64,000 nucleotides of DNA from Paramecium tetraurelia. Taxonomy: Eukaryota. Made by a program: the position numbers and the translations under genes. The stretch's first letter is position 1, and every line of letters starts with the position of its first letter. Positions 20,775 through 64,000 of the stretch are shown one piece after another. The stretch is taken from the NCBI GenBank assembly GCA_000165425.1, contig CT867988.1:155370-219369 (forward strand), given 5' to 3'. The notes beneath the pieces were generated by a model. That model did no database searches and had not been told where the DNA came from. It saw only the letters and a list, made by a program, of their open reading frames with translations.

Positions 20775-21338
20775 ATGTCATCAGATTCGGATTAGCATAA
20801 AAAGGAAGAGGCAAATCGGATCTATGTGACAGGATATTCAACTAAAGAATCAGAAATGGATATTAAGAGTATATTCGCAAGACATGGAGAAATTCAGGAG
20901 TTTTCATGGAAAGGACGCTTTTGTTTCATCGTAAGACGTGGGAGTTGGCATTAGGGTGCAGGCTTATACCAAGCCTGAGGACGCAGCAGATGCTGTTAGA
21001 TTGATGAATTAGTAGGAGGTCAATGGAAGAAATTTGATTGTGGAGCTAGCACGAGCAAAGAAAAAGGATGGAGCCTGTTATTAATGTGGGAAATAGGGGC
21101 ATTTGTAAGTGAAATGAATATAATTTTAGTGCTCGAAATTGTCGTTTAAATAGACGCTCTTATTCTGACTCCAGGTATGAGAACATGTGACATTAGGCGC
21201 CATTCAAAGAAGAAAAAAAAACATAGAAAGCATAGATCATCAAGCTCTTCCTCGAGTAGTGAAAAGAAAAAATCAAAAAAGAGAAAGAGAAAGAGCAAGA
21301 GCTCTTCTTCAAGTTCTCATTCACGTTCAAGTGATTGA
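20775..21338 (+). CDS. SR-like splicing factor: RRM + CCHC zinc knuckle + Ser/Arg/Lys-rich tail (SRSF7/RSZ-like)
   Basis: RIYVTG (RNP2), KGRFCFI|AY (RNP1), NGRNLIVELAR, CYQCGKQGHFARNC, S/K/R-rich tail; three introns. Confidence 0.9.
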
Positions 21339-60172: not shown

Positions 60173-61605
60173 TCAAAGAACTTGTTATTAATCATTCTCT
60201 TATCCAAATTGTGGGACATTATTTTGCTTTTAATTAATAGCCGACTTGACATTTTCATAACCACCGGTACTTAAGATAGGTGGTAACAACTAATAATCAA
60301 ATCCCCCTCCCCCACATTGAGCATAATCCAACCCTTTTTCTTCAACTTCTGGAGTCACATTTAGCAATCCCAATATCTTTAATACAAATATCACAATTGC
60401 ATGCAATACGACAGACCATCCTAACCAAACTACAGTACCTAGGAGTTGAATTCCCCATTATTTAGCTCCATGTCCATAAAATATTCCTTTTTCTGTATTA
60501 AACCACCCTGGAAATTGAGCACCAATTAGACCACACCCTCCATGTATTGGAAAAGCATCAACTGGATCGTCAACTTTAAATTTATGCATTAAGATTCCGA
60601 ATCCCCAATATGTCAAACCTCCCAAAATTCCAATTACAAAGGCAGCCCATAATTCAATTCCATCACAAGAGCCAGTTACTGCAACCAATCCTGCCAAATT
60701 TCCATTGCATATCATTACTAAACTGAACTTGCTCTTCTCATTTCTATTTTTATAGTAGTGTAAAACCATTAATGTTAATCCTCCTGAAGCTCCTGCTATG
60801 ATTGTATTCGTTGTAGCTCTTCCTGCAGCATAAGCCATTGTACCTGACAAGGCAGTGGTACTTCCAGCATTGAAAAATATCCAACATGTGTAAAGTGAAA
60901 GAGTAGATAAACAAATATATGTTGTATTGCTTGGATTAAATTCATTTGCATATTTTTCATTCCATCTGTTTTTCCTTGCTCCTAACATTACTGTCAACAC
61001 CAATGCTCCCAATGCAGACATAAAGTGAATTGTACCGCTACCAGCCAAATCAATATAGCCTAGATCTTGAAGCCAACCTCCTCCCCAAGTCCAATGAGCA
61101 CAAATTGGATAAATAAACGAAGAAAATGCTACGCTCAAAAAGCAATAACCGATAATTGACATTCTTTCCACTGCTCCTCCAGATACGATACTATTAGCTG
61201 CAGCTCCAACTGACGTTTACAAAACTTATATATAACTTATAATTGTGTACCCCAATGAGAGTAATGCTTAGTTCCAGCAAAATTACTTCCAGCATAGAAG
61301 TCTGTCCCAGCAAATTTTCCAGATCCCATGCAAATTCCATATCCAACCTAATATATTAACATTCAATTTACAAGCCACCAGCAAATGACAGCAATACATG
61401 TATTTAGATAGACTTTTATCATAATTGATTACATATTTTTATATCTTACACACCCACCCTCTAAAAATGCAAATCCAAGTTGCATCAACAAAACAACAAT
61501 CCTAATCTATTTTATAAGTATATACCCTGCAAATTAAGTCCAAAAATAGTCTATTGTATTTTCTAACAATCCCAATTTGTCTTCAACTGAAAAATCTGTT
61601 GACAT
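60173..61605 (-). CDS. AMT: Ammonium transporter (Amt/Mep family)
   Basis: MQLGFAFLEGGCVRYKN, IVSGAVER, IYPICAHWTWGGGWL, DLAGSGTIH, FFNAGS, NGNLAGLVAVT, DDPVDAFPIHG. Confidence 0.96.

Positions 61606-61756: not shown

Positions 61757-64000
<2,244 letters not shown>

Follow-up and report, generated by a model that had tools for sequence, protein, structure and literature searches.

Can a single unusually built intron set the output of a splicing-factor gene in a ciliate? This question is raised by a locus of Paramecium tetraurelia that lies in a 64,000-nucleotide stretch of contig CT867988.1, hereafter called the window. The first intron of the gene is G+C-rich, and it contains a TAG triplet just upstream of its acceptor; the original prediction held that these two 3' splice sites compete with each other and thereby form an autoregulatory switch that operates through nonsense-mediated decay (NMD). 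The features on which the following account is based, all located on the forward strand, are:

20775..21338, + strand: SR-like gene with four exons and a product of 161 aa; the joined exons, translated in code 6, give protein P0008
20775-20930, 20962-21104, 21130-21174 and 21197-21338, + strand: the four exons, the last of which ends with the TGA stop at 21336-38
20931..20961, + strand: intron 1, 31 nt, GTA donor and CAG acceptor (sequence and junction reads)
20952..20954, + strand: inner TAG, 7 nt 5' of the acceptor in use (sequence)
20959..20961, + strand: CAG acceptor, in use (junction reads)
20976..20978, + strand: premature TGA that follows retention of intron 1 or use of the TAG (read-through translation)
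20959..20977, + strand: predicted 7-bp hairpin with arms at 20959-65 and 20971-77 and a 5-nt loop at 20966-70 (MFE and centroid folds)
21105..21129, + strand: intron 2, 25 nt, 5/25 G+C, efficiently spliced (coordinates, loose ends, depth)
21175..21196, + strand: intron 3, 22 nt, 8/22 G+C, often unspliced (coordinates, bin depth)

The reading frame opens with the ATG at 20775, and in the ciliate code the frame of exon 1 runs to the ATC that ends at 20930. Translation of the four joined exons yields 161 residues, which match P0008, that is P. tetraurelia GSPATT00027828001 (XP_001424194.1), to 100%; the same 161-aa sequence is also present in a second Paramecium record. When the full-length protein was compared with Pfam, an N-terminal RRM_1 domain was found at residues 16-77 (34.4 bits, cut-off 20.7), which is followed by one zf-CCHC domain at residues 90-105 (25.9 bits, cut-off 20.8); with separate exon pieces as queries, the RRM_1 and zf-CCHC matches were sub-threshold only. 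In a search of solved structures (PDB), the structure of human SRSF3 aligns with residues 15-159 (E 1.3e-08), and the JGI name for one record of the family is 'arginine/serine-rich splicing factor 7'. An RS domain is defined as a C-terminal region of at least 50 residues that contains more than 40% R+S and runs of RS or SR. The C-terminal tail of the Paramecium protein comprises 56 residues, 82% of which are K, R or S and 57% R or S; however, just five RS/SR dipeptides are found in it, and 14 lysines occupy places where arginines are expected. Because the tail is lysine-rich, the term 'SR-like' is preferred over SR protein in the strict sense. The original designation as an SR-protein gene is therefore kept as far as the RRM and the zinc knuckle are concerned, both of which are recognized by Pfam, and is narrowed to 'SR-like' on account of the tail. 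The safer name, judged by domain content, is that of an SR-like protein with SRSF7/RSZ architecture (RRM, CCHC knuckle and K/R/S tail) and a putative role in splicing.

The genome of P. tetraurelia encodes three paralogues, GSPATT00015793001, GSPATT00012994001 and GSPATT00008423001. GSPATT00015793001 is the ohnologue and differs from GSPATT00027828001 at 4 of 161 residues, and GSPATT00008423001 and GSPATT00012994001 form an older paralogue pair. For duplicates, the members of the ohnologue pair are unusually similar; gene conversion or strong constraint may be behind this. On the opposite strand, no overlapping gene is evident, and the ORFs present there look chance-like for a code with one stop.

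Intron 1 (20931-20961, GTAAGACGTGGGAGTTGGCATTAGGGTGCAG) interrupts the RNP1 motif of the RRM between ..GRFCFI and AY.. of the encoded protein. The sequence confirms what had been noticed at this site, namely a length of 31 nt, a G+C content of 17/31 (15/27 when the GT and the AG are left out), a TAG at 20952-54 and a CAG at 20959-61. The whole window was surveyed for introns with a self-trained codon score, by which GTA..YAG stretches of 18-35 nt between coding-like flanks were collected as candidates. This heuristic retained 68 candidates, false positives included, with a mean G+C of 0.278 and a median length of 26 nt; one of the false positives, 20869-20897, is located within exon 1. Among the 68 heuristic candidates, intron 1 has the highest G+C content (0.548), in line with the earlier remark that it is unlike the AT-rich introns typical of the window. 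Two other candidates of this heuristic survey exceed 50% G+C, 61198-61220 on the reverse strand (0.52) and 62364-62389 on the forward strand (0.54), and these may be intra-exon false positives.

What such a composition is expected to do can be taken from two papers. For P. tetraurelia, group means of intron G+C between 13.2 and 18.9% are reported, retention is higher with higher G+C, and a high G+C content accompanies low splicing efficiency; the stronger splice signals are GTA and TAG, and CAG is the weaker type of acceptor (PMC8997360). In P. bursaria, intron G+C has a mean of 17.7%, more G+C goes along with more retention, and introns of at least 27 nt are less well spliced than those of 23-26 nt (PMC12862383). 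Three weakening features coincide in intron 1, which are 55% G+C, a length of 31 nt and a CAG acceptor. In P. primaurelia, the gene model of a family member (P0020, 93 aa) begins at the Met located after intron 1 (MNQQEING..); in this case, the G+C-rich intron 1 may not have been removed by the annotation pipeline.

When intron 1 remains unspliced, read-through in the ciliate code gives ...FCFIVRRGSWHQGAGLYQA and then the TGA at 20976-78; the frame that opens at the ATG 20775, when followed through the retained intron, gives VRRGSWHQGAGLYQA and is closed by this same TGA. Removal of the 24-nt GT..TAG piece keeps the read-through frame, and the TGA at 20976-78 is therefore reached in this case, too. 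The premature stop lies 360 nt ahead of the normal one and two introns follow downstream (21105-21129 and 21175-21196), so that translation bears out the expectation that both TAG use and retention lead to a TGA in the RRM upstream of two introns. The perfect stem that is predicted at 20959-20977 holds the CAG acceptor and the first bases of exon 2 and overlaps the premature TGA. Conservation of this hairpin cannot be judged because its exonic arm is also under protein constraint, and folding of the whole region is no better than that of shuffled sequences (z -0.20 and -0.37).

The use of intron 1 was followed in three raw stranded oligo-dT runs with 58-nt reads (X21, X22 and X23) and in one assembled run (X3), in which junctions were listed from 3 reads and 1% upwards. 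The sole junction listed is 20930->20962, which is of the GT..AG type and skips 31 nt. It is crossed by 74, 62 and 36 split reads in X21, X22 and X23, respectively (172 in total); in addition, loose ends were found behind 20931 (66, 99 and 65 reads, 230 in total) and before 20962 (20, 28 and 15 reads). All junction reads taken together number 160, 189 and 116 in the three runs, and 465/465 of them, 172 split and 293 loose-end reads, correspond to the CAG acceptor. The consensus of the loose ends at 20930 and 20962 is the sequence of the respective opposite exon. Intron 1 is a genuine intron.

A part of the transcripts keeps it. The bin 20936-55, which is wholly intronic, is covered to a depth of 22.2, 25.6 and 26.9 on the RNA strand and of 0 on the antisense strand in X21, X22 and X23. 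The weak-intron part of the earlier claim stands accordingly: when intronic depth is set against the junction-spanning reads, about 12-19% of the poly(A)+ reads that span the site still contain intron 1 (approximately 12%, 12% and 19% in X21-X23, gene pair pooled), and these lead into the premature TGA. In X3, a contig with the whole intron (20902-20978, 0 mismatches) has a word depth of 2213.8 and the contig of the spliced junction one of 903.1, from which a retention of approximately 71% is obtained with k-mer depth of contigs as a rough measure. The contrast between 12-19% and approximately 71% is not assignable to NMD or to regulation, since the conditions of the runs are not given. Reads of the ohnologue are mixed into every RNA run; they are recognized at seven sites with 14-67% other letters, the share of which varies by run (20822, 20891, 20979, 20989, 21066, 21148 and 21157, plus a patch at 20862-73; whole span 20822-21302), and G>A at 20989 corresponds to the D62N difference of GSPATT00015793001. 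The retention rates therefore describe the gene pair and not GSPATT00027828001 alone. For wild-type P. tetraurelia, splice variation with a mean of 3% and a median of 1% has been reported, and 97.8% of introns stay below 20% (PMC5663052).

Intron 2, which is of the typical kind, serves as an internal control, and its splicing is evident from loose ends at 21104 and 21130. Its intronic depth amounts to about 7 at most, a bound that is derived from the mixed bin 21116-35 and from 43-48 loose-end reads at 21130, and in X3 intron 2 is represented by a spliced end only, without an intron-2 contig. In X21-X23, retention of intron 1 is far above that of its neighbour, intron 2. For introns 2 and 3, retention was gauged by bin depth alone; joints are not listed for them, probably due to the 58-nt reads as compared with the 45 nt of exon 3. 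In the bin 21176-95, which covers intron 3, depths of 22.1, 34.3 and 34.2 were found, compared with 70.9, 82.4 and 72.8 in the exon-3 bin ahead of it. Its retention is no lower than that of intron 1, which is hence not the sole leaky step. Retention of intron 3 leads to ..SDSRYENM followed by TGA, that is to a protein of 119 aa that lacks the K/R/S tail, and the public model of the paralogue GSPATT00012994001 (P0005, 119 aa) likewise runs into intron 3 at its end. As NMD loses effectiveness towards the 3' end (PMC8997360), near which the stop of this form is located, the intron-3-retained form may persist. At the other end of the gene, RNA molecules often end at 20780-20790, the depth is approximately 0.3 at 20756-75 and read coverage starts 5-15 nt inside the annotated CDS (ATG 20775); a very short leader, together with a loss of the extreme 5' end from the library, is the probable reason for this. 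Across the gene, antisense read depth is 0 nearly everywhere in the RNA runs.

The same data bear on the inner TAG. According to the original prediction, the TAG at 20952-54 competes with the CAG at 20959-61, and the NMD switch lies in whether 24 nt or 31 nt are removed. The TAG is present, the 24-nt piece has GT..AG borders and the ideal size, splicing at the TAG would lead to the TGA at 20976-78, and among the acceptors of P. tetraurelia TAG is stronger than CAG (PMC8997360). In addition, the read-through peptides are consistent with a TAG that is kept in other Paramecium forms, a statement that holds at the peptide level only. However, a 20930->20955 junction, i.e., a 24-nt skip, is not listed in 4/4 runs (X21, X22, X23 and X3; 3 reads, 1%), as against 172 split reads for the CAG. 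Furthermore, TAG-spliced reads would give other letters behind 20931, and the 230 loose ends at this position agree with the CAG-spliced sequence at 0.97, 1.0 and 0.98; the TAG acceptor is therefore not visibly used. Decay alone does not hide the TAG form, because the retained form, which is equally visible to NMD, is plainly present in the same runs. For steady-state poly(A)+ RNA, the competing-acceptor model is already largely refuted, and we regard it as very improbable. The switch, if there is any, is one between splicing and retention and not between CAG and TAG. The inner TAG may instead be part of the branch-site region, a role that would account for both its disuse as an acceptor and its apparent conservation.

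How far the sequence of intron 1 is kept can be followed first within the ohnologue pair. Records 4 and 5 of X3 start at 20949 in intron 1 and differ only at the ohnologue-diagnostic position 20979 (depths 1769 and 565), and both ohnologue variants feed one common intron contig. The two depths add up to 2334, which is near the 2214 of the common contig; the intron of the ohnologue is therefore identical over at least the last 13 nt and probably throughout. By itself, the identity of the ohnologue introns says little because the proteins differ at only 4/161 residues. Seven short ORFs in records from other Paramecium in public assemblies reach further, as in these the exon-1 peptide continues into intron 1. 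The tails that follow FCFI and the minimum number of edits that separates each of them from intron 1 of the window are:

P0014: VRRGSWHQGA.., 0 edits
P0022: VSRGSWHQGA.., 1 edit
P0017: VRSGSWHLGC.., 2 edits
P0016: VRSGSCLIGY.., 5 edits
P0015, P0013 and P0023 (older paralogue clade): VRHGPFGI, 4 edits

The edit counts are based on a codon-wise minimum-edit computation from the peptides and are lower bounds, not counts from DNA. When GTAAG sites in the window were used as controls, 0/82 came as close, with control minima of 6-8 edits. Exon 1 of the seven records shares 41-49 of 52 residues with that of the window. In P0017 and P0016, exon 2 is entered in the other frame, consistent with an intron of 32 nt; the constraint is therefore not a reading frame. 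Whether the seven ORFs originate from DNA or RNA is not given, and they are hence no evidence of retention. The search for a short read-through ORF of a P. bursaria orthologue gave no candidate, and metagenome contigs contained no orthologous DNA when searched with protein P0017 or with a degenerate pattern of the exon 1/intron 1 border. Taken at the level of peptides and contigs, intron 1 appears to be conserved among paralogues and other Paramecium forms: the ohnologue shares the intron contig and the seven records are 0-5 edits away, closer than 82/82 controls. The conservation in ohnologues and other Paramecium on which the prediction depended is hence supported.

We consider it rather likely that intron 1 is an intrinsically weak intron that is kept weak by selection, that its retention leads to NMD and that it probably serves splicing-factor homeostasis. 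Its weakness would result from 55% G+C, from a length of 31 nt as compared with approximately 25 nt, and from a CAG acceptor in place of TAG that is not preceded by a T-run; the high G+C content alone, without a bound regulator, may already be enough. A sizeable share of the transcripts would keep intron 1 due to this weakness, translation of the retained transcripts would stop at the TGA 20976-78 inside the RRM, and their removal by nonsense-mediated decay would be expected, so that the spliced share would set the output of the gene. It has been shown that PTC-inducing variants are strongly up in NMD-deficient paramecia (PMC5663052) and that NMD works best on 5'-proximal introns (PMC8997360); on this basis, transcripts that keep intron 1 are expected to be targets of NMD. 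The most likely use of such an arrangement would be the homeostasis of a splicing-factor family, either by auto-regulation or by cross-regulation among the four paralogues, with a protein that would bind within the tiny intron or next to it and prevent its excision. Beyond the observed retention and premature stop, we thus infer decay by NMD and feedback by the protein.

It is tempting to speculate further, although the following version is rather doubtful in its entirety, that the 31-nt intron is a conserved RNA sensor and possibly the smallest 'poison' element known. Binding of the SRSF7-like protein, or of its three paralogues, to the conserved G-rich core or to the end of exon 1 would sterically hinder spliceosome assembly on an intron of minimal size and lead to dose-dependent retention and decay; the leaky intron 3 would supply a tail-less protein consisting of RRM and knuckle that modulates the loop, and the inner TAG would be kept as a branch region and not as an acceptor.

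A simpler explanation is that intron 1 is a passive leak, i.e., a poor substrate by composition and length, the retention of which is tolerated noise that is cleared by NMD and has no regulatory use. Its G+C content and its length are enough to predict poor splicing (PMC8997360, PMC12862383), and 92-98% of the splice variants in the median Paramecium gene were judged to be errors (PMC5663052). However, the sequence of the intron is kept across paralogue clades and in forms in which just 41/52 exon-1 residues are identical, and old introns of P. bursaria have a lower G+C content and a lower retention than young ones (PMC12862383). In addition, the same signature in 11 other SR-like genes, whose IR/ASSV values are among the highest 1-5% within their expression class, was read as functional (PMC5663052). 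A passive leak hence appears unlikely, and selection for a weak intron is the reading that is followed here. Less likely still is a detained intron, in which case polyadenylated transcripts with intron 1 would form a nuclear reserve to be spliced at a later time instead of being exported and decayed. Retention of 12-19% and of approximately 71% (X3) in poly(A)+ RNA is high for an efficient NMD target close to the 5' end, and detained introns were raised as a general possibility by Saudemont 2017; however, the SR-like precedent in Paramecium is NMD-sensitive (both PMC5663052).

The intronic reads could also be an artefact, derived from genomic DNA, nascent pre-mRNA or misplaced reads of paralogues. 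Paralogue reads are indeed present and the library conditions are not given; however, the intronic depth is one-stranded, with 0 on the other strand, the flanks are covered to a depth of only 0.25-0.35 at 20756-75 and of 3-4 at 21336-55, a bin that still includes the stop codon, and hardly any intronic signal is found at intron 2 of these transcripts. Other letters are not listed within intron 1, and X3 contains spliced contigs and nothing over intron 2. One-strand intronic reads, near-zero upstream depth and a clean intron 2 exclude DNA contamination, and there is hardly any chance left that the retention as a whole is an artefact. Retention of a weak intron under selection is hence the reading with which the known systems are compared in the following.

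The closest precedent comes from P. tetraurelia itself. Using human SRSF4, SRSF5 and SRSF6 as queries, Saudemont 2017 identified 11 genes (SRSF5-like) in four clades, in each of which one or more introns show IR/ASSV of 23-76% when the cells are deficient in NMD; the weak introns of these genes are paralogue-conserved within a clade and NMD-sensitive, which was read by the authors as AS-NMD regulation (Genome Biol 18:208, PMC5663052). The present gene resembles these 11 genes in that it belongs to an RRM splicing-factor family and contains a tiny, inefficient and paralogue-conserved intron whose retention results in a PTC. It differs from them in its architecture, as RRM plus CCHC knuckle is not described in that paper, and the list of 11 genes given there is without GSPATT00027828001, 00015793001, 00012994001 and 00008423001 (PMC5663052). 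Furthermore, NMD sensitivity was measured for the 11 genes, and what is seen for the intron studied here is a retention of 12-19% and of approximately 71%; the text on the weak introns of the 11 genes contains no description of G+C or sequence (PMC5663052). Under the gene ids 27828 and 15793 (both spellings) and 8423 and 12994 (GSPATG form), the four genes were not found named in the main texts of the papers searched. Since AS-NMD via weak conserved introns had already been reported by Saudemont 2017 (PMC5663052), feedback control would be less of a surprise than was presumed for an organism in which splicing is little regulated. Intron 1 of GSPATT00027828001 adds to a kind of intron already described in P. 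tetraurelia, from a different domain architecture.

Outside the ciliates, animal SR genes reportedly carry ultraconserved poison exons or retained introns that are coupled to NMD, as is said to have been described by Lareau and by Ni in 2007. Common to these genes and the Paramecium gene is a conserved non-coding element that diverts some of the transcripts to a PTC form, with splicing-factor homeostasis as the presumed purpose. In animals, a cassette poison exon inside a long intron is the usual form of the element, whereas the whole device of the Paramecium gene consists of one 31-nt intron, which is either removed or kept. For human SRSF7 (9G8), SRSF3 and the plant RSZ-type SR proteins, both architecture and autoregulation are known, and the human SRSF7 and SRSF3 genes use a poison exon. 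The Paramecium protein is like the SRSF7/RSZ type in having one RRM, one CCHC knuckle and a basic/serine tail; however, this tail is lysine/serine-rich with its five RS/SR dipeptides in 56 residues, in contrast to human SRSF7 and SRSF3, and the likeness is one of architecture.

The general picture, which was published in 2017, is unchanged by this finding. What the gene would contribute is a fifth, architecturally distinct SR-like family in Paramecium, consisting of four genes with RRM and zinc knuckle, that has a conserved poor intron, together with a concrete sequence picture in which 55% G+C, 31 nt and a CAG acceptor occur together and are apparently kept across species. The setting is a genus in which nearly all other splice variation was judged to be error and in which exon skipping is absent (PMC5663052). 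Since an element of 31 nt is small enough for exhaustive mutagenesis, intron 1 could provide a compact model for the tuning of unproductive splicing without exon skipping.
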